Source of the DNA: Methanobacteriota archaeon
GTDB taxonomy: Archaea > Thermoplasmatota > SW-10-69-26 > JACQPN01
DNA length: 64,000 nucleotides
Direction of reading: 5' to 3'
NCBI GenBank assembly: GCA_016207515.1
Contig: JACQPN010000002.1
Span: forward strand, 12,350-76,349
Positions 34,210 to 45,417 of the stretch are shown here, in pieces (the first letter of the stretch is position 1; every line of letters starts with the position of its first letter). A program made the position numbers and the translations under genes. Under the pieces are notes generated by a model. It was given only the letters and a program-made list of their open reading frames with translations, was not told where the DNA came from and ran no database searches.

Positions 34210-34635
34210 TCATGCCTGTTTCTTGCGACCCTTGGTCGGACTGAACGAGATGACCTTGATGCCGAGCTTTCTTGCGGCCTGCAACTGCCTGTCATCAGCG
34301 GAGACAAGGGTTCCTCCGGTGGAGACGGCTGCCTCTAGGTACTCCGCGTCGTAGTACGTCACGCCGGTGGCGGCATCCCAGACGCGATCGTCGTCGGTGT
34401 TCAACGGAATCAGGTCGATTCCGAGGAAGACGGCGCGGTGAAGCTCCTTGGCCTCGGCGACCTTCAGGTCGCGACACTCTTTCTGTATGACCCGTCCGAG
34501 CTCGCTGTATGCGATGTGTGGAGCTTGAAGCGCCATGCCTTTCGCCGAGGTTTCGCTAAGCCAGGCCCGAAACTCCTCCGATCCCGCCTCATCGAGGAAC
34601 GATTTTGCCAAAGCGCTGGCATCCAAGACGAACAT
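34210..34635 (-). CDS. vapC: PIN-domain toxin VapC
   Basis: ORF 34210..34707; start MFVLDASALAKSFLDE (PIN acidic residues D5, E/D ~40, D ~100). Confidence 0.8.
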   Translation of the reverse strand: MFVLDASALAKSFLDEAGSEEFRAWLSETSAKGMALQAPHIAYSELGRVIQKECRDLKVAEAKELHRAVFLGIDLIPLNTDDDRVWDAATGVTYYDAEYLEAAVSTGGTLVSADDRQLQAARKLGIKVISFSPTKGRKKQA

Positions 34636-34636
34636 C

Positions 34637-34846
34637 CTAGTGCTCCTCGCGAGCTTCCCGTACGACGTCAGCCACGGGACGACTTGCGGGCCGCCGGTAC
34701 TTCGCAAGGGTGGCGTTGCGACGATCGATTCGGAGTCTTTCTGCGAGCTTCGTGAGGTCCTCCTTCACGGTCTCGGCGATCTTGACTCCCGCCTCGTCGA
34801 GCTCGTGCTGTAGCGCATCTGGAATACGCACGCTGATTACACCCAT
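34637..34846 (-). CDS. vapB: ribbon-helix-helix antitoxin VapB (CopG-like)
   Basis: 69 aa, MGVISVRIPDALQHELDE...; stop 1 nt from vapC start. Confidence 0.75.
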   Translation of the reverse strand: MGVISVRIPDALQHELDEAGVKIAETVKEDLTKLAERLRIDRRNATLAKYRRPASRPVADVVREAREEH

Positions 34847-35005
34847 GTGTTTACATGGTTGTAAGACAAGATAAAGTTTACTGCTGGTTCTTACGGCCCA
34901 GGAGGGAAGTTGGTTGCACGGCGTGGGCGCCTTCGCGACCGACGTGCGAACCCGCCGACACCGCCGGTTAGTTATTTATACTTCGTCAGCGCACGTATAC
35001 ATTGT

Positions 35006-35209
35006 ATGCCAGAAGACACGATGCTTCGCGTCCCAGTGGCGGTTCGCGAGCGCCTGCGACGCTACGGCGTGAAGGGCCAGACGTACGCCAACATCCTGAC
35101 GAACCTGATGGACGAGTTTGACCATCGAGAGTTCGTGAAGGAACAAATCGCTTTGTTGGATGAGGCGATCGAGGAGAAGCCGCGCCTAGTTAACCTTCGA
35201 GACCTCTGA
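35006..35209 (+). CDS. antitoxin (RelB/ParD-like) of RelE module
   Basis: ORF 34910..35209, start placed at ATG 35006 (MPEDTMLRVPVAVRERLRRYG...); stop overlaps the toxin start (ATGA). Confidence 0.6.
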   Translation: MPEDTMLRVPVAVRERLRRYGVKGQTYANILTNLMDEFDHREFVKEQIALLDEAIEEKPRLVNLRDL

Positions 35210-35475
35210 TGCCTTACCGGGTGATCCTCGGGCGGCGCGCCGAAAAGAACCTTCGCGCGCTACGTGCCGATGAACGGGCGCGAGTCAAGGACGCTCTCCT
35301 CGTGCTGGAGGAAGACCCGATCCACCCCAGGCCCGGGGCGGACATCAAGCGGCTCAAGGGCACAAGACGCCTCTACCGCGTGCGCGTAGGCCCGTGGAGA
35401 GCCATCTATGGCATTCACGATGGCGACGTAATTATCACGGACTTCTTCAGGAAGAAGCGCGGATACGACATCTGA
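35209..35475 (+). CDS. relE: RelE/ParE-family toxin
   Basis: 88 aa; YRVRVGPWRAIYGIHDGDVIITDFFRKKRGY matches the RelE core. Confidence 0.8.
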   Translation: MPYRVILGRRAEKNLRALRADERARVKDALLVLEEDPIHPRPGADIKRLKGTRRLYRVRVGPWRAIYGIHDGDVIITDFFRKKRGYDI

Positions 35476-37038: not shown

Positions 37039-38187
37039 TTGAATTTGGACCTCGCCTGGAACCCGCTCGGCGCCATCGGCATCGTGGTGGGCGTCCTCGC
37101 TTGCGCCATGGCGGCGCTCGTGTGGAAGGCGCGGGCCGACCGGGCCCAAAACCGCTGGCTCGCGGCCTACCTCTTCGGCAACGGCTTGTACTTCGTCGCC
37201 TACAACGGCCTCCGACTCTTCGCGACCGATCCCCGTGACGCCTACGCGCTCATGGCCTCAGGTTGGTCGGTGAATCTGCTGTCCGTCGGAGGATACTTTG
37301 CCTTCCTCTCTACGTTGGATTCCCCTCTCGTCTCTTGGATGCGAAGGTACCGGATCGTGTGGGCCGTGATGGGCGGCTCTGCCCTGGTCGCGGCATATGT
37401 CGTCGTCCAGCCGGGTGCTTGGTTCCCGGGCGTGCAGCCACTCGGTGGTTTTTCGGGATGGGGCGCAGTCTCCTCCCCGCTTAGAAACCTCGTCCTCCTG
37501 GTCCTCACGGGCCTCTTTATCTTTTCCGCAGCGCCGGCGATCGACGCTTGGCGCCGAGCGAAGACGCCGCTCCTACGTCGCCAAGGTTGGATCTTTGGCG
37601 CCACGTTCGCGACGACATCGCTCGGTTGGGCGGCCTTCATAATATGGTACCTGGCCTCGGGAACGGGCACATTCACGCCGTTTGTCGTGGTCGTCAATTT
37701 CCTGTGGCAGGCCCTGCTTTCGCTTGCCCTCTCCCTTGGCCTTGCGTACGGGATCCTGAAGACCCAACTTTTCGACGTCGACATCAAGCTCAAGTGGACG
37801 TTGCGAAGCGGCACGCTCGCGGGCGCCTTCTTGGGCGTTTTCTTCGTGGCAAGCGAGGCAGCGCAATCGGTACTCTCCGCACAACTCGGTCCCATTGTCG
37901 GGCTCGTCGCAACGGGTGCTCTCGTGTTCGCGTTGGCACCGCTCCAGCGCGCCGCGGACAGGATCGCGGACAAGGCCATGCCGCGCGTTTCGGACGACGC
38001 CGAGTACAGGACGGTGAGAAAGCGCGAGGTGTACGCCGCGGCCGTCGAGAGTGCTCTCGAAGAGGGCGACATACGCCCGAAGGAGCGCGGGATGCTCGCG
38101 ACACTTGCGGACCAGCTTGGGCTAGGTCCGAAGGAGATGCACGAGATCGAGGTTGAGGCGCGTTCGGAAAGAGCGCGGGTGGCGTAG
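37039..38187 (+). CDS. array member A: polytopic membrane protein (~9 TM) with conserved C-terminal module
   Basis: 382 aa, TTG start; seven N-terminal TM helices, then conserved TM hairpin (FFVASEAAQ...ALVFALAPL) and cytoplasmic helical tail. Confidence 0.75.
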   Translation: MNLDLAWNPLGAIGIVVGVLACAMAALVWKARADRAQNRWLAAYLFGNGLYFVAYNGLRLFATDPRDAYALMASGWSVNLLSVGGYFAFLSTLDSPLVSWMRRYRIVWAVMGGSALVAAYVVVQPGAWFPGVQPLGGFSGWGAVSSPLRNLVLLVLTGLFIFSAAPAIDAWRRAKTPLLRRQGWIFGATFATTSLGWAAFIIWYLASGTGTFTPFVVVVNFLWQALLSLALSLGLAYGILKTQLFDVDIKLKWTLRSGTLAGAFLGVFFVASEAAQSVLSAQLGPIVGLVATGALVFALAPLQRAADRIADKAMPRVSDDAEYRTVRKREVYAAAVESALEEGDIRPKERGMLATLADQLGLGPKEMHEIEVEARSERARVA

Positions 38188-38316: not shown

Positions 38317-38832
38317 GTGCACTTGCTCGACGCCGTGGGGCTCACCGACTCCGTTTCGGTGCTAGTGTTCACTCTCCTGGGCCTTTGGGTCCTTTCGCTT
38401 CGCTGGCGTTCGGCCACGAACATCACGTTCGCCGTCTGCGCGATCGCTTTCTCGGCGGGCATAGTCCCGGTCAATCTTTTCACCGCCCGGACTCACTTGG
38501 ATCCCCCCATATCCGCCGCCGCGGACGTCGTCGCGAAGCGCGCCGTCTCGATCACGCGCGACGGCGATCCCGTCCCGTGCCCCATCCCGACGCTGCCTTG
38601 CGACGCAGCGCCGCGCGGCGCGCCGATCCTGCCCGACGACACCCGATACTCGCTCGTCATCGGCGACTACGTCGCGCTCGGCGGCGACGGATACGACAGG
38701 CTCCCCGACCTCGGTGCGAGCGGCGCGCTCGAAGCGGACGTGCTCATTGAGCACCTCGAGCGCCTCGGCACGGTCGAGCCGCGCGTCGACGGCCGCGTGT
38801 GGCACGTCGCGCGACTTCAGGGGGTGCCCTGA
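38317..38832 (+). pseudogene. array fragment B2: family-like N-terminal TM segment fused in frame to a 5'-nucleotidase C-terminal-domain-like tail
   Basis: GTG after B1 stop; N-terminal TM (LVFTLLGLWVLSLRWRS), C-terminal YSLVIGDYVALGGDGYDRL...VDGRVWHV resembles the 5'-nucleotidase C-terminal domain; no conserved family C-terminal module. Confidence 0.35.
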
Positions 38833-40073
38833 TGCACTTGCTGGGCGAGGCCTGGTTCTCGTGGGTCTCCTTCGTGGTCGCCGATGTGATCCTCGTTGCG
38901 CTCGGCATTCTCGTGCTCCGGCTCAAGCCGCGGACGCCGGCGAGCTGGGCTCTTGGCGTCTTCGCGACCGCCTGGGGAGCCAACTTCATCGTGGCGCTCG
39001 CGCCGTTCTTCTTCGACATCGACCTTTCGAGGCCAGGGTATCTGGAGGGTCAAACCCTTCTTCGCGTCGTCCTGAGAGCCATCTCCGCCGGCGGCCTCGT
39101 GGCGATGATGCTGACCTTCCCGCGGGCCCTGCCGCGAGCCGAGCGCCGCGCCCTCGTCGGGCCCGCGATCTTTGGCGCGGTCTGGGCGTTTGTGCTCATC
39201 GCCCCGCGATGGGCGATCCCACCGTGGGCGCTCCTCGACGTGGGAACCGCGATTGTCGGGTACGGGTTCGTCTGGGCGTACCTGCTGCTTCTCACGTCCC
39301 GGTGGCGGCGCGCGACCGACGCGGGCGAACGGCACCAGATCGTGCTCACGTTCGTGGCGCTCGCGCTGGGCGTCAGTTTCCAAGCGGGACAATACGCGGG
39401 AGGCGCGAGCCAGCTCGCTTCGTCAGGCGTCCTGACGTTCGTGACCCAGCTTGCCCCACCCGTCTGGCTTGCGGTCGTCTGGCTCCGGGGGGCCCACGGG
39501 GCGCAAGCGCGCGTCGAGCGGAATCTCGCCATCCTCCCGCTCGCGCTCGCGTTCGTGGGATTCCTCGTGGGGAGGAGGAGCCCCTACGATCCCTCGGGCC
39601 TCCTCGCCCTTGGCACCGTCGCGATCCTCACCTATGCGATCGTGCGTCACCAAGTCCTCGGCATCGACGTCAAGCTCCGCTTCGCCATCAGCAAGTCCAC
39701 GGTCGCGGCCGTGTTCATCGCGGTTTTCTTCGTCGCGAGCGAAGCGGCGCAGCAGTTCTTCGGCGAAGCGTTCCAATCCAATTACGTGGGCATCCTGGCG
39801 GCGGGTGCTCTCGTGTTCGCGATCGCGCCGTTGTCGCGCCTCGCGGACCGGATCGCGGAGAAGGCGGTGCCGGTTCCCACGGCACCTCCGGAGCCCACGG
39901 GGCTACCTTTTCGCGAAAAGCTCTACCGGGATGCAGCGCGCTACGCGCTCCGAGACGGCACGATGACACGCATCGAGGAGTTGCATCTTGCCCAGCTTGC
40001 CGCCGAGCTCGGGCTGCGCGCGGATCGGGCGGTCGAACTGCGCCATGAGATCGAGGAGGAGATGAGGGCGTGA
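38832..40073 (+). CDS. array member C: polytopic membrane protein with conserved C-terminal module
   Basis: ATG overlapping B2 stop (ATGA); module ISKSTVAAVFIAVFFVASEAAQQFFGEAFQSNYVGILAAGALVFAIAPLSRLADRIAEKAVP plus tail YRDAARYALRDGTMTRIEELHLAQLAAELGL. Confidence 0.8.
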   Translation: MHLLGEAWFSWVSFVVADVILVALGILVLRLKPRTPASWALGVFATAWGANFIVALAPFFFDIDLSRPGYLEGQTLLRVVLRAISAGGLVAMMLTFPRALPRAERRALVGPAIFGAVWAFVLIAPRWAIPPWALLDVGTAIVGYGFVWAYLLLLTSRWRRATDAGERHQIVLTFVALALGVSFQAGQYAGGASQLASSGVLTFVTQLAPPVWLAVVWLRGAHGAQARVERNLAILPLALAFVGFLVGRRSPYDPSGLLALGTVAILTYAIVRHQVLGIDVKLRFAISKSTVAAVFIAVFFVASEAAQQFFGEAFQSNYVGILAAGALVFAIAPLSRLADRIAEKAVPVPTAPPEPTGLPFREKLYRDAARYALRDGTMTRIEELHLAQLAAELGLRADRAVELRHEIEEEMRA

Positions 40074-41356
40074 TCGTTTTCCACACGGAGTGGGACGCGA
40101 TCGTGAACGCGATTACGGCCGCGATCCTCGCGGGGTTCGGAGCCTGGATCTGGGCGCTTCGGCCGCGGACCCGACTCACCCGTATGCTCGCGCTCTTTGC
40201 CGTCGCGCACGGCGTTCTCTACACGTACATCAACTTGGTCGAGGTCCTCCCTGTGGGAGGCCCCGCTTGGATCGCGGATACGCTCCTCCGGGGCGCGCTC
40301 TTCGGGGCCGCCGCGTGGGGTCTGCTCGCGATGGGACGCGAAGTCCTGCGGCCTCTCGGCCCCGGGAGCGATCGTCTCTGGAAGGTCGCCGTCGCGACCG
40401 TCGGGATTCTCGCGGTCGTAATCACGGGCCCGGTGCTTTTTGGCCTCCCCGATTCCTCCCCTCTCGCCTGGGTCGCGATCGCCGCCGAGCTTTTCGGCCT
40501 CGCAACGTTCATTCTCGGATTCACCGCCCTTCCGGTCGTGTTTGTGTGGCTCTACCGGCAGCCCCTCGGGGAGGACGTTGAGCGGACGAGGCGCAACGCC
40601 ATCGTGATGAGCAACGCGCTCGTCCTCTGGCCGGCGCTCTATGGGATTGAGGCCGCGATCGGGGGCGGTATCGGCGGATACCTAGTTCTCATCGGTGTGG
40701 TCGCGCTCGGGCTCCTCTGGCTGGCCAACATCGGAGTCGATCCCCGGACAGCCCGCGAGGCTCGCGACGCGGCGCTTCTCGCCTTCGCCCTGCTCCTCAT
40801 CGGAACCGTCGACAGACTGATCCTCTCCGACGCGCTCGGCTACTCTCGCGCAGAGGGCCCGTTCTATGGAATCGCGCGCCTCCTGACGGTCGTCGCGCTC
40901 TCCTACGCCGTCCTGAAGCACTCCGTGCTCGGCTTCGACGTGAACCTACGCTTTGCAATCAGCAAGTCCACCATCGCCGCCGTCTTCGTCGCCGTCTTCT
41001 TCGTCGCGAGCGAAGCGGCGCAGCAGTTCTTCGGTGAAGCGTTCCAGTCGAGCTACGTGGGCATCCTGACGGCGGGTGCGCTCGTGTTCGCGATCGCGCC
41101 GTTGTCGCGGCTTGCGGACAGGATCGCTGAGAAGGCGGTGCCGATCGCGGAGGGCCGTCCCGCCGCCACGACGGCGAAGGAGGAAGCGTACAAACGCGCG
41201 TTGCGCATCGCGCTGCGGGACCGCAAGCTCACGCGCGAGGAGGACATCCACGTGCACGAGCTCGCGGAGCACCTCGGCATCGGCGCAGGCCGAGCGATGG
41301 CATTGCGTGTAGAGATTGAACGCGAATTGGCCGCATCGACCGGAGGCGGGACTTGA
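40070..41356 (+). CDS. array member D: polytopic membrane protein with conserved C-terminal module
   Basis: GTG overlapping C stop (GTGA); C-terminal module nearly identical to C and E2 at protein and DNA level. Confidence 0.8.
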   Translation: MIVFHTEWDAIVNAITAAILAGFGAWIWALRPRTRLTRMLALFAVAHGVLYTYINLVEVLPVGGPAWIADTLLRGALFGAAAWGLLAMGREVLRPLGPGSDRLWKVAVATVGILAVVITGPVLFGLPDSSPLAWVAIAAELFGLATFILGFTALPVVFVWLYRQPLGEDVERTRRNAIVMSNALVLWPALYGIEAAIGGGIGGYLVLIGVVALGLLWLANIGVDPRTAREARDAALLAFALLLIGTVDRLILSDALGYSRAEGPFYGIARLLTVVALSYAVLKHSVLGFDVNLRFAISKSTIAAVFVAVFFVASEAAQQFFGEAFQSSYVGILTAGALVFAIAPLSRLADRIAEKAVPIAEGRPAATTAKEEAYKRALRIALRDRKLTREEDIHVHELAEHLGIGAGRAMALRVEIERELAASTGGGT

Positions 41357-41595
41357 CGATTCCGCTCGGCCGGATCCTCAACCTCGCCGGGAGCTCGGTG
41401 ATTGTGCTGCTCGGGCTCGCCGTCGCATTCCTTGGCCGAGGACGAGGTCCAGACCTTGGAGTGACTCGGTTCTCCATCGGCATCGGCGGGCTCGCTCTCG
41501 CGAAGCGCCACATGCGCGACCTTGTGGCCACCTGGGCGGGAGAGGACGCAACTGGTCGCGAAGCGGCGCCCGACTTGGAGGCGCGGTCCCCGTGA
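41353..41595 (+). CDS. array fragment E1: 80-aa ORF with family N-terminal TM motif
   Basis: TTG overlapping D stop; LAGSSVIVLLGLAVAFLGRGRG matches the family N-terminus; ends at TGA overlapping the GTG of E2. Confidence 0.4.
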   Translation: MTIPLGRILNLAGSSVIVLLGLAVAFLGRGRGPDLGVTRFSIGIGGLALAKRHMRDLVATWAGEDATGREAAPDLEARSP

Positions 41596-42932
41596 ATCTG
41601 CTCTCCGGGGCCCTCGTGCCCGCCTACGCCGGGACCCTCACAAACCTGCTCCTCGCTGCGGCTCTCCTCAGGTGGGGCCCAAGGCGGGGGGCATCGGTCT
41701 GGTTCGTCGCTTTCCTGGTCGCGGACGGCGTTGGCCTGGCGCTCAACGCAATCGAGAACCACGTCTTCCAGACCTTCGACGCCACCACGTCGAGCGCGTC
41801 AGAGATCGAAGCGACACGGGCGCTACTCACGGGGCTCGATGTCGCCGTGGGCGTTCTGCTCGTCTCTGCCCTGTTCCTGATCGTTTTCGCAACGATCGAA
41901 TTCTTGGGGCGCGCCCCGCGATGGCTGGCACCGGCGGTCCTCGCGACCGCGAGCACGGCGGCGCTCTGGGGGATTCTCGACCCTCCCGCAGGATACTTCC
42001 TCCGCGAGGGCCGCCTCATACACGTCGTCGACTCCTCCTATTTCTTCCTCACAACGCTTCCTGCCTTCGCAAGCCAAGGCGTCGCGCTTCTCGTGCTCGC
42101 GCGGCGACCAGCCGGCGATCCCAGCTCACCCACGCGCCGCTCTCACCTCCTCCTTGGCATCGGTCTCCTCGTGTATCCTCTTCATCGTGGCGCCTATCTT
42201 GTGGTGGACTACTTCCTCGACCCGCTGTCTGTAGCGCGAGTAACTGCCTCCAATCGGTTCGTCCTGCTCGGCGAGCTGGCGACCGCCGTGTTCCTCCTCT
42301 TCGCCGCCTACCTTGCCATCATGCGGCTTGCACGCACACATCCCGAGCACGCGGGCCTCGTTCTCGCGGCCGGCGTGGGCCTCGGCTCCGGGATACTGCG
42401 TGCCCTGACGGATGCGCTCCCGTCCTACTTCTATTTCGGCGTCGCGAACCTCGTGCTGCCGCTCGTCGCTACGTACGCGCTGCTCCGGCACAACCTGTTC
42501 GGTCTCGATTTCAGGGTTCGGTGGGCGATCTCGAAGTCCACGATCGCGGCGGTCTTCATCGCCGTCTTCTTTGTGGCGAGCGAGGCGGCGCAGCAGTTCT
42601 TCGGCGAAGCGTTCCAATCCAATTACGTTGGCATCCTGGCGGCGGGTGCTCTTGTGTTCGCGATCGCACCGTTGTCGCGGCTTGCGGACCGGCTCGCTGA
42701 GAAGGCGGTGCCGGTGGCCGCCGGAACCGGGCCCGTCGAGGCGAGCGCGTCCGACACGCGCGGAGCCGACGCGTACCGACACGCGGTGCGCTTGGCGCTT
42801 CGCGACCGGCGCCTCACGCCCGGTGAAGAGGTCGCTTTGGCGCACGTCGCGCAGGGTCTCGGACTCACGCCTGTTGAGGCCATTCGGCTCCGCCACGAGG
42901 TCGAGGCGGAGACCGGGAAGGAGGTGCGCTAA
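41592..42932 (+). CDS. array member E2: polytopic membrane protein with conserved C-terminal module
   Basis: In-frame part of ORF 41316..42932 starting at GTG 41592; C-terminal module identical over long stretches to C and D. Confidence 0.75.
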   Translation: MNLLSGALVPAYAGTLTNLLLAAALLRWGPRRGASVWFVAFLVADGVGLALNAIENHVFQTFDATTSSASEIEATRALLTGLDVAVGVLLVSALFLIVFATIEFLGRAPRWLAPAVLATASTAALWGILDPPAGYFLREGRLIHVVDSSYFFLTTLPAFASQGVALLVLARRPAGDPSSPTRRSHLLLGIGLLVYPLHRGAYLVVDYFLDPLSVARVTASNRFVLLGELATAVFLLFAAYLAIMRLARTHPEHAGLVLAAGVGLGSGILRALTDALPSYFYFGVANLVLPLVATYALLRHNLFGLDFRVRWAISKSTIAAVFIAVFFVASEAAQQFFGEAFQSNYVGILAAGALVFAIAPLSRLADRLAEKAVPVAAGTGPVEASASDTRGADAYRHAVRLALRDRRLTPGEEVALAHVAQGLGLTPVEAIRLRHEVEAETGKEVR

Positions 42933-42990: not shown

Positions 42991-44166
42991 ATGGGTGTCG
43001 TGATCCTCGCACTCGGCAGGAGCCGACGGGAGAACGTGGCGCTGGGGGCCCTCGCCCTATCGTTTGGTGCGATGTTCGTGTCGAACAACCTCGCCTTCGA
43101 GCCCGGAGCTGACGCGCTCCCAGTCATGTGGGGCTCGGCCCTCTTGGCCGTTGTCGCCGGTCTCGCCGCCCTCGCCGTGGCATGGACGACAGAGGGCCTC
43201 CCACGCGCGCCGGTCGTCGTCGCGGGAGCCGTCGGGGCCGCTTGGCAGCTCCTCGTGCCGATGGGACCCGTGTACGCGGCGGTGAACGCGGCGCGCTTCC
43301 CGCAGCCCGTGGCGGCGGCGTTCTTCACGAACGTCGCGTCTCCGCTTTTCGTCATCGCGTTGGCGCTCCTCATCGGGCTCCTTGCCGCCTTCGCCCTCGC
43401 CCCGAGGAGACTCGCGATGGGTGATCCGCGCCGTCCGCCGCGAAGGCTTCTGATGTACGCGTTCGGCCTCTACCTCGCGTACTCGATGGGCGCCAACGTG
43501 GTCGCGTACGACTTGAGCGGCTATGTCGTACTCTTCCCACTCGTCGTCGCACTTGCGGTGGCGCTGCTCGTCGCTGGCGCCGCGCCGGGCGGGCTGCCCG
43601 AACGTGACGGGGCGCTCGTCATCCTCGCGGCGGGCCTCGCCGGCGCGATCTCCGAGACCTGGGGAGGGGCGACCACGTCGGGCCTTGGCGTCGGCATCCT
43701 CCGCATCGTCGGCGTTGCGGTCCTTGCGTACTCCGTGTTCCGCTACGACCTCCTCGGCGTGCCGCTCCCGCGTATCGCCGAACACCGCGGCAGCCTTGCG
43801 ATGGCCTCGCTGGCCTCGCTCTTCATCGTCGCGCAGATCGCGGAGAACTACCTCAGCGCGGAGTACGGCCTCTTGATGGGTGGCGTGGTGGCGGGCGCGC
43901 TCCTCTTCGCCGCGAACCCCATACAACGGGCGATGGAGAGGACGACCGCTCCGGTCGGGCCCCATCGTGCTCCGGCGACGGTCGAGCGCCGCGAGGAGAG
44001 CGAGCGTGCCTACAGGGTGGCGTTACGCCGCTTCCTCGTTGACGGGGATATCAGCGCGGAGGAGGAGATCGCCTTGGCCCACCTTGCGGATGAGGCGGGC
44101 GTGACGGTGCGGCGAACAATCGAACTCCGCCACGAGGTCGAGCGCGAGTTGGGGAGGCGGGGCTGA
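42991..44166 (+). CDS. array member F: polytopic membrane protein with conserved C-terminal module (start uncertain)
   Basis: First in-frame ATG after E2 stop is 42991; homology to G begins at CTG 42934 (LALDARFVITAGSGALWGL vs VLDLSAASLVRAGSGVLFL), so the start may be non-canonical or lost. Confidence 0.7.
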   Translation: MGVVILALGRSRRENVALGALALSFGAMFVSNNLAFEPGADALPVMWGSALLAVVAGLAALAVAWTTEGLPRAPVVVAGAVGAAWQLLVPMGPVYAAVNAARFPQPVAAAFFTNVASPLFVIALALLIGLLAAFALAPRRLAMGDPRRPPRRLLMYAFGLYLAYSMGANVVAYDLSGYVVLFPLVVALAVALLVAGAAPGGLPERDGALVILAAGLAGAISETWGGATTSGLGVGILRIVGVAVLAYSVFRYDLLGVPLPRIAEHRGSLAMASLASLFIVAQIAENYLSAEYGLLMGGVVAGALLFAANPIQRAMERTTAPVGPHRAPATVERREESERAYRVALRRFLVDGDISAEEEIALAHLADEAGVTVRRTIELRHEVERELGRRG

Positions 44167-45417
44167 TTGGTTCTCGACCTCAGCGCGGCTTCGCTCGTTC
44201 GCGCGGGAAGCGGTGTACTGTTTCTCCTTGTCGGGCTCGCGATGATCGGCCTCGGTCGTCGGAAGCGCGAGAACCTGGCCGTCGGTGTGGCGGCAGTCGC
44301 GTTCGGCCTTGCTTTCGTCGTCAACAACATCGATCCGTCAGGCTCGGTCGTCGCGCAGATCGTGCTTGCCCTGGTTTGCGCCGCCGCGCTCGCCGTGCCG
44401 GTGGCTTCCTCGAAAAGGGCCGCCGCGTTCACGGCATTTGTCGCGCTGTCGCTTGTCGGACTCCTCGCGCTATCGACGCCAGCCCAAGTCGTCGGCTTCG
44501 CGGGAGTTCCCATCCCACCTGAGGCTTGGACGGGTTATTACCAGTCCCTCTTCGGCTACCTCCCAATGGTGGCGGCGGTCCTTGGGTACGCTCTGATGCA
44601 GGCGCTGCGATGCAGTAGCGAGTCGGACGAGTGCAGCGCCCGGGCATCAGCGCTTCTTGTCGCCGGGTGGGGGATCTATCCTGCCTTCCTCACGGGCGGA
44701 CAGGTTGCCATCGTTGCGACGCTTCGGTTCGGGCTGACGCCTCCCGGGCTCGCGACCACGGGCGTCCTTGCCCTCGCCGTCGCGGTCATCGTGGCGATGC
44801 TCCTCTACTCGACGCGCCGCACGAAGAGAGCCCGTAATGTCGCGTGGCTTCTCCTGGCATGCGAACTGGCCGGGATGGTGGATCAGGGCTTGGGCGGGAC
44901 CTATGTCACTCCATGGGTCGGTGTCGCGCGCTCGATTGGTGCGGTGATGATTGCGGTGGCGGTCTTTCGCGAGGCGGCACTAGGTTTTGAACTCGGTCTT
45001 CCGACGATCCGCCGCGGAACGACGGCGACGGTGGTTCTCGCGGGCTTCTTCATCGTCGCCCAGATCGCGCAGAACTTCTTGAGTGATGAGTACGGGCTGG
45101 TGATGGGGGGCGTGGTCGCGGGAGCGCTGCTTTTCGCGGCGAACCCCATCCAGCGCGCGATCGAGAGGGACTGGGCCGACCGTGCGCAAGCCACCACATC
45201 AGCGGCGTTTCCCATGGCAAGGGGGGCGCCGGCCGCCGCGACGGCGAGCAAGGAGGAGGCGTACCGCAACGCGCTGCGTATCGCGCTACGTGACCGCGTC
45301 CTCACGGAAGACGAGGAAGTCCAACTCGCGCATCTTTCCGACGAATTGGGCCTCACGCATAGGCGGGCAAGAGAGATCCGAAACGAGGTGCAGCGCGAGG
45401 CCGGGGCGCGGGAGTAA
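44167..45417 (+). CDS. array member G: polytopic membrane protein with conserved C-terminal module
   Basis: TTG right after F stop; C-terminal module FFIVAQIAQNFLSDEYGLVMGGVVAGALLFAANPIQRAIER plus tail EEAYRNALRIALRDRVLTEDEEVQLAHLSDELGL. Confidence 0.8.
   Translation: MVLDLSAASLVRAGSGVLFLLVGLAMIGLGRRKRENLAVGVAAVAFGLAFVVNNIDPSGSVVAQIVLALVCAAALAVPVASSKRAAAFTAFVALSLVGLLALSTPAQVVGFAGVPIPPEAWTGYYQSLFGYLPMVAAVLGYALMQALRCSSESDECSARASALLVAGWGIYPAFLTGGQVAIVATLRFGLTPPGLATTGVLALAVAVIVAMLLYSTRRTKRARNVAWLLLACELAGMVDQGLGGTYVTPWVGVARSIGAVMIAVAVFREAALGFELGLPTIRRGTTATVVLAGFFIVAQIAQNFLSDEYGLVMGGVVAGALLFAANPIQRAIERDWADRAQATTSAAFPMARGAPAAATASKEEAYRNALRIALRDRVLTEDEEVQLAHLSDELGLTHRRAREIRNEVQREAGARE

Follow-up and report, generated by a model that had tools for sequence, protein, structure and literature searches.

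The tufA/tufB gene pair is a classic example of concerted evolution, and the opa genes of Neisseria, the mycobacterial PE/PPE genes and the tandem archaellin genes are mosaic multigene families which exchange short tracts. Wang and Chen (2018; PMC6053082) defined and surveyed how prokaryotic paralogues evolve in concert through gene conversion. Here we describe a tandem array of six paralogous membrane protein genes (B to G) from an uncultured Thermoplasmatota archaeon, in which a short internal segment of three neighbouring genes appears to have been homogenized. The DNA analysed, called the window below, is a stretch of 64,000 nucleotides (nt) with a GC content of 63% (contig JACQPN010000002.1, positions 12,350 to 76,349), and is part of a 337,851-bp contig of a metagenome-assembled genome (MAG). 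The six paralogues lie on the same strand between 37.0 and 45.4 kb, and tblastn searches with them revealed no further copy of the family elsewhere in the window. Like the opa, PE/PPE and archaellin families, this is a set of tandem or multi-copy genes for surface or membrane proteins in which a conserved segment gives homology and the variable domains differ; unlike in those families, the segment that seems to be exchanged is the conserved one and not the variable one.

Genes C (38832..40073), D (40070..41356) and E (41592..42932), all on the forward strand, each contain a nearly identical block, located at 39687..39872 (62 codons) in C, 40958..41143 in D and 42528..42713 in E. Protein C corresponds to NCBI entry HY556_00770 (100% identity), from which its start is taken, a GTG at 38799 being also possible; E, which was called E2 in a first-pass annotation of this DNA, begins with GTG. 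We consider it very probable that the identity of these blocks has two sources, a family-wide constraint on codons 1-26 and short-tract gene conversion among neighbours over the last ~108 nt.

The three blocks align without gaps over 186 nt, with identities of 90.3% (C/D), 90.3% (C/E) and 88.2% (D/E), and differ from one another at 18-22 positions, which agrees well with the ~85-90% over ~190 bp given in the first-pass annotation. Perfect runs of more than 40 nt, which it had also noted, exist for one pair only: an exact 44-mer is shared by C (39744) and E (42585), while the longest exact run is 38 nt between C and D and 21 nt between D and E. A 44-nt run is in itself unremarkable within a 186-nt segment at 90% identity. 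A repeat search recovers the block family extended to 273 nt (39627-39899), at 82% and 78%.

Divergence is not uniform along the genes. In a sliding window over the codon alignment of C, D and E, identity is 0.18-0.64 upstream of the block, 0.85-0.97 within it and 0.29-0.69 downstream, so that the strong divergence of the N-terminal parts (~330 codons in the codon alignment) is confirmed. The nucleotide identity outside the block, in both the N-terminal domains (N-domains) and the tails, is 0.43-0.53. The ~65 codons 3′ of the block are as diverged as the N-domain, with 37-44% amino acid (aa) identity and a proportion of synonymous differences (pS) of 0.63-0.74; since identity drops again here, the block is an internal island and not, as had been proposed, the whole C-terminal module. 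By the Nei-Gojobori method the block pairs have a pS of 0.28-0.33 and a nonsynonymous divergence (dN) of 0.03-0.05, compared to 0.56-0.74 and 0.4-1.3 for all non-block parts. At identical residues the same codon is used in 74-78% of cases within the block and in 34-48% outside it. A function of the block at the RNA level was rejected, as an Rfam search over 30-52 kb gave no match and the fold of the block had a z-score of +0.35.

The GC content at third codon positions (GC3) of the block is 0.82-0.98. A naive codon null of 47%, based on the codon usage of the six genes, is too low given this composition and the same-codon values of 0.62-0.83 reached by blocks from foreign genomes whose N-domains are unrelated, and orthologue-controlled tests were therefore used instead. 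The N-domain of C has an orthologue in L001:2097 (gene L001:1242-2501; 78-79% aa identity, nt identity 0.82, synonymous divergence (dS) 0.50), where L numbers denote stretches of DNA from elsewhere, and that of E in L007:1082 (72% aa over 367 residues by BLAST, nt identity 0.84, dS 0.45); the closest relative of the D N-domain is L024:6631 at 50% aa. Among themselves the N-domains of C, D and E are only 25-34% identical in amino acids and saturated at synonymous sites (pS 0.58-0.64). This saturation, together with the orthologues elsewhere, indicates that the duplications are old and predate the split from the related genomes. Conversely, each of the C, D and E blocks has its nearest neighbours in the other two (94-97% aa), the blocks of the orthologues being 74-82% identical.

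Quartet sites give the same contrast. For C, E and their orthologues, the N-domain has 273 sites of the orthologue type, 2 of the paralogue type and 0 of the third; in the block these numbers are 5, 16 and 1, and in the tail they form a star (10:6:10). For C and D, 160 orthologue against 6 paralogue sites in the N-domain become 2 against 10 in the block, and for D and E 200 against 8 become 4 against 14. A codon table shows where in the block the change occurs. Codons 1-26 (39687-39764 in C) are invariant or follow orthology, and their identity is 0.87 within the window, 0.88 to the orthologues and 0.86 to other foreign genes. Over codons 27-62 identity is 0.90-0.94 within the window and 0.66-0.71 to orthologues and foreign genes, none of the 29 foreign blocks exceeding 0.79 (87 window-foreign pairs); the C tract is 0.91-0.94 identical to D and E and 0.71 to its own orthologue. 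Nine codons in this part are common to C, D and E and are present in none of the three orthologues. Of these, seven change the amino acid and the other two are rare synonymous codons (GGT for Gly and TTG for Leu); the window-specific motif is EAFQS[NS]Y...PLSRLADRIAEKAVP, with GGT/TTG. At residues invariant in the six genes, the same codon is used in 50/60 comparisons within the window versus 103/180 window-foreign comparisons in codons 27-62 (p=1.5e-4), and there is no difference in codons 1-26 (46/66 versus 138/198). A degenerate pattern for the motif had 0 matches in the Joint Genome Institute (JGI) metagenomes, and a query with the D protein found 0 relatives there.

Maximum chi-square analysis places breakpoints inside the block in 6/6 triplets (permutation p<=0.0005), at 39743-39766 in C, 40981-41005 in D and 42533-42587 in E, and 84-94% of the informative sites 3′ of them are of the paralogue type. 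The inferred conversion tract in C would thus be 39765..39872, that is block codons 27-62, with its 5′ breakpoint between 39743 and 39766 and its 3′ end coinciding with the boundary between block and linker; in D the converted part would extend from ~41005 or 41036 to 41143, and in E from ~42536-42587 to 42713. Sub-patches alternate within the tract, C and E agreeing at CAA TCC AAT and GCT, D and E at CGG CTT and GCT, and C and D in patches of their own, from which more than one conversion event is probable. The tracts differ at 7-11 positions per 108 nt, so that these events, though later than the split from L001 and L007, are unlikely to be very recent. The first-pass proposal of gene conversion in C, D and E is therefore supported for codons 27-62, which group by genome; codons 1-26, some 40% of the block, need none.

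How much of this might arise with no exchange of DNA at all, from extreme purifying selection on the encoded hairpin and strong GC3 codon bias? Conservation in the family peaks in the block, its first 26 codons are equally similar to foreign genomes and to paralogues, and between-genome blocks with unrelated N-domains reach a nucleotide identity of 0.86. Such an explanation is nevertheless improbable, and for the 3′ tract it appears largely refuted, because there the paralogues resemble each other far more than their own orthologues (0.90-0.94 versus 0.66-0.71), have nine genome-specific codons in common including synonymous rare ones, use the same codon at invariant residues at a frequency of 0.83 versus 0.57, and show significant breakpoints. 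The seven nonsynonymous codons, clustered in the loop, the second helix and the juxtamembrane helix, could instead be read as parallel substitutions, the hairpins co-adapting to a shared partner or within hetero-oligomers without transfer of DNA; genome-specific loop motifs are found elsewhere too, such as ERSGSQYLGIV in MAG JBQTJL and AGFAGSELLGVF in CAZDGP. Convergence at the protein level would not be expected to produce common rare synonymous codons or an excess at synonymous sites alone, and identical multi-codon runs of up to 44 nt point to copying, which makes parallel substitution quite unlikely as an alternative to conversion. Co-adaptation could, however, be a reason why converted tracts were retained.

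Another explanation is that C, D and E are recent duplicates whose constant module remained unchanged while the N-domains diversified rapidly under positive selection; the first-pass annotation had offered, as its alternative to conversion, a recent duplication of the constant module with the variable part diversifying. The genes are adjacent, have one architecture and have a highly similar block in common, and yet recent duplication was rejected: pS is saturated in N-domains and tails (0.58-0.74) and only 0.28-0.33 in the block, positive selection would not saturate synonymous sites, and the orthologues of the C and E N-domains, at dS 0.45-0.50, place the duplications before those splits. Repeat collapse or strain chimerism during assembly is very unlikely as well. 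The source MAG contig was found only once in the collection, and exact runs of 38-44 nt could confuse assembly with small k-mers; the blocks, however, differ at 18-22 positions and are flanked by unique sequence, independent assemblies run colinear with C and E through the junction of N-domain and block (82.6% over 1336 nt in L001, and L007), and the same mosaic is present in several unrelated MAGs.

Gene conversion of the 3′ tract thus remains the preferred reading, and several points weigh against it. Conversion is read from a pattern. All the data are MAGs or metagenome contigs, in which local misassembly or strain chimerism may occur. The D orthologue is only 50% identical, and the synonymous-only evidence consists of ~20 codons with non-independent pairs compared. 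Foreign block pairs with unrelated N-domains reach a nucleotide identity of 0.80-0.87 and the same-codon values given above, and the excess of block identity at the codon level is smaller than the naive null suggested, the block being rich in GC3 and the protein conserved.

The first ~78 nt, encoding ISKSTxAAVFIAVFFVASEAAQQFFG, would be held near-constant throughout the family by purifying selection, which together with the GC3 of the block would account for foreign genomes being equally similar over this part. The last ~108 nt, which encode the outer loop, the second helix and the juxtamembrane helix, would have been homogenized among C, D and E by non-reciprocal homologous recombination once this lineage had separated from its relatives L001 and CAYVGY. 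We presume that the conserved 5′ part, with its exact runs of 21-44 nt, would supply the homology for strand invasion, that heteroduplex would extend 3′ up to the unalignable linker, and that purifying selection on the hairpin would tolerate the converted copies and may favour them.

This corresponds in several respects to concerted evolution as surveyed (PMC6053082): paralogues within the genome are closer to each other than to orthologues elsewhere, and the recombination would be homologous, non-reciprocal and between repeats of one replicon. C, D and E show an excess of paralogue similarity, orthology defined by the flanks, a synonymous-site signal (~20 codons) and breakpoint support. The case differs from those described (PMC6053082) in that only a ~110-nt sub-segment appears homogenized while both flanks are fully diverged, that the protein is a non-essential, lineage-expanded and uncharacterized membrane protein and not the product of a core pathway gene, and that the signal is of about the same age as the split from the nearest relatives rather than long-lasting. 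Gene conversion is an ordinary, known process; what is new is the archaeal membrane protein family in which it is seen. We regard the locus as a well-controlled archaeal example of sub-genic, short-tract conversion, and as an illustration of the extent to which a near-identical repeat in a GC-rich genome can come down to protein conservation and codon bias.

The array gave no evidence of variation that is programmed or of high frequency, of silent cassettes or of phase-variable repeats. Programmed cassette variation of the pilE/pilS or vlsE kind and a diversity-generating retroelement were rejected: all six paralogues are full-length open reading frames (ORFs) with their own starts, the segment exchanged is the conserved one, and no recombinase, integrase or reverse transcriptase gene is located within ~10 kb of the array.

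The remaining paralogues are not part of the homogenized trio. F (42991..44166, forward) and G (44167..45417, forward) have G-type blocks at 43780-43941 and 45007-45168, and the first-pass annotation had taken them for a second subgroup with a shared block of its own. These two blocks are 73% identical in nucleotides, which lies within the range of F or G to foreign blocks of the same subtype (0.61-0.77), and the F block is closer to foreign L024:5282 (0.77) than to that of G. With same-codon use of 55% versus 42% (p=0.12) there is no within-genome excess, and conversion between F and G was rejected; their blocks are of an old subtype which is also found in other genomes. B (37039..38187, forward) carries a B-type block of 61 codons at 37801-37983, and its nearest block neighbours are foreign. 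A run of 19-20 nt (GGT GCT CTC GTG TTC GCG) is common to the B and C blocks, its GGT being present in several foreign B-type blocks as well.

Mosaics like that of C, D and E recur in other Thermoplasmatota MAGs. Block identity and N-domain aa identity are, respectively, 0.92 and 43% for L028:3334/4529, 0.87 and 39% for L005:9159/10622, 0.85 and 40% for L017:8080/10568, and 0.90 and 31% for L019/L045; the blocks of L008:1068/L002:1453 and L002:1453/L002:2754 are likewise within 0.83-0.92. The best block match is in the same MAG for 12/48 genes and the best N-domain match for 3/48, a count which leaves out the MAG with 28 copies. In CAYVGY, where the orthologues of D and E are on separate contigs, the blocks are not homogenized (0.77), which fits a role for adjacency.

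Comparison with L001 also bears on the history of the array. Homology to the window extends only from ~38530 to 39872, ending exactly at the 3′ end of the block, and begins inside a 5′-nucleotidase gene that is truncated in the window; its C-terminal remnant lies at 38538-38832 (forward strand, within the ORF 38317-38832). In L001 a full 5′-nucleotidase gene (PF02872, E=1e-32) directly precedes the C orthologue, and the order is 5′-nucleotidase, C orthologue, a B-like gene and a G-like gene, unlike that in the window. The abrupt start of homology at ~38530 marks a rearrangement breakpoint adjoining gene B.

The tails at 39873-40070 (C), 41144-41353 (D), 42714-42929 (E) and L001 2283-2498 are non-orthologous though the genes are orthologous. 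Tail dS is 1.94 for C and its orthologue (N-domain 0.50) and 1.28 for E and its orthologue (N-domain 0.45), and the C and L001:2097 tails are 45% identical in amino acids. A closer match to the L001:2097 tail is that of L006:3909 (71-81% identity), the N-domains of these two being only 39% identical, which suggests that tails may be swapped at the block.

Between D and E there is an 80-codon ORF, E1 (41353..41595, forward), in a different frame, with 4-nt overlaps at both the stop of D and the start of E. E1 resembles the first transmembrane (TM) helices of family members (best match L014, 38% over 56 aa, E=5e-4) and is missing from the orthologous L007 locus. It is probably what is left of a deleted paralogue; alternatively, it may be a small membrane ORF. 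The change in gene order, the 5′-nucleotidase remnant, E1 and the non-orthologous tails together suggest that the array is recombinationally dynamic and that crossovers and deletions have taken place in it, in keeping with the first-pass suggestion that its repeats could mediate recombination. One could go further and view the hairpin block as a built-in recombination joint that reshuffles sensor-like N-domains and TerB-like tails between paralogues and genomes. We hold this only tentatively and think it rather doubtful, but leave it open because orthologous N-domains are joined to non-orthologous tails, L001 homology ends at the block and array order differs. If the block does mediate such shuffling, membrane sensors in uncultured archaea could be diversified in a simple way. 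Arrays of this kind call for caution in annotation and assembly, with regard to both gene order and chimeric gene models.

Proteins B to G belong to a large, unnamed family of multi-pass membrane proteins. A search with a profile of 69 homologues gave 4,561 representatives at 50% identity, of which 1,547 had E<=1e-30. No model for the family was found in Pfam or NCBIfam, in which there were only scattered sub-threshold matches to unrelated families. The locus thereby draws attention to a family of about 4,500 representatives, consisting of a seven-transmembrane (7TM)-like domain, a hairpin and a TerB-like tail, which is strongly expanded in tandem arrays of Thermoplasmatota and single-copy in several bacterial phyla.

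Three modules can be distinguished: a fast-evolving N-terminal 7TM-like bundle followed by two further helices, a conserved two-helix hairpin, and a variable TerB/Tic110-like tail. In the AlphaFold model of C (predicted local distance difference test score 87.5), eleven long helices precede three short C-terminal ones. The block, where conservation in the family alignment is highest, encodes a TM helix, a short loop, a second TM helix and a juxtamembrane helix, and corresponds to helices 288-313 and 317-345 of the model. From the positive-inside rule we infer an N-out/C-in topology, which would place the loop EAFQSN outside and the tail in the cytoplasm.

Among prokaryotic 7TM receptor-type sensor domains are 7TMR-DISM (PF07695) and HisKA_7TM (PF16927), and the 7TM fold is also that of G protein-coupled receptors and rhodopsins. 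The N-domain forms an up-down bundle of seven helices that can be superposed on known 7TM receptors. Among the Pfam and NCBIfam matches at E<=1 there was no 7TM or sensor family, a Foldseek search against PDB gave nothing at E<=0.001, and a literature search for a described family combining 7TM and TerB returned nothing relevant.

The last ~55 residues of the tail match, at the profile level, a Tic110 repeat (PDB 4BM5, E=4e-8) and TerB (PDB 2OU3, E=0.0075); unlike in those proteins, a single unit is fused here to an 11-helix membrane domain. PF05099 is matched by 14/56 C-terminal modules at E<=0.01 (best 2e-6), and its gathering score is reached by none of the six window proteins, the best being E with 19.4 bits against a cutoff of 24.4. 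The tail thus appears TerB/Tic110-like without being a certified member of PF05099. All six tails (B to G; for example 45175-45414) weakly match PDC-S48, a candidate defence family of PADLOC (E 1e-6 to 1e-2). These matches cover only ~60 residues in the middle of the profile and are confined to the TerB-like tail; they probably reflect a TerB-like unit common to both rather than a role in defence, and membership in a defence system was rejected as they are weak and restricted to the tail.

C to G look like a single operon, since C/D, D/E1 and E1/E overlap by 4 nt at their stop and start codons and G starts on the base that directly follows the F stop. The start of F is uncertain: ATG 42991 cuts into the first predicted TM helix, and TTG 42874 overlaps the end of E by 58 nt. 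The array is surrounded by ordinary chromosomal genes, with purF, a glyoxalase, a PIN protein, a ParE toxin-antitoxin pair and an amidohydrolase upstream, and HSP20, a BNR protein, a thermosome, a radical-SAM protein and MCM downstream. The toxin-antitoxin genes adjoining the array upstream are those for the PIN-domain protein (34210-34707, reverse strand), the ParE toxin (35209-35475) and a small partner ORF (34910-35209).

Tandem arrays of the family are present in many Thermoplasmatota MAGs. MAG JBQTJL (Thermoplasmatota isolate SAR81) has at least 28 copies on many short contigs (L002-L004, L008, L017-L019, L032, L034, L037-L039, L045, L048, L055 and L056), a number which may reflect an extreme expansion, repeats that fragment the assembly, or a strain-mixed bin. 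Single-copy homologues of the same architecture occur in Gemmatimonadota, and the C-terminal module is matched in Gammaproteobacteria, Myxococcota, Spirochaetales and Actinomycetes. Members of the family are thus found in both domains, with arrays only in archaea among the genomes sampled. The bacterial homologues L046, L049, L050, L053 and L060-L064 come from Gemmatimonadota/Longimicrobiales, a gammaproteobacterium, Woeseiaceae, Myxococcota and Actinomycetes; the bacterial stretches fetched have one block each, with only the C-terminal module matched in most and the full architecture in L062 (9353-10441).

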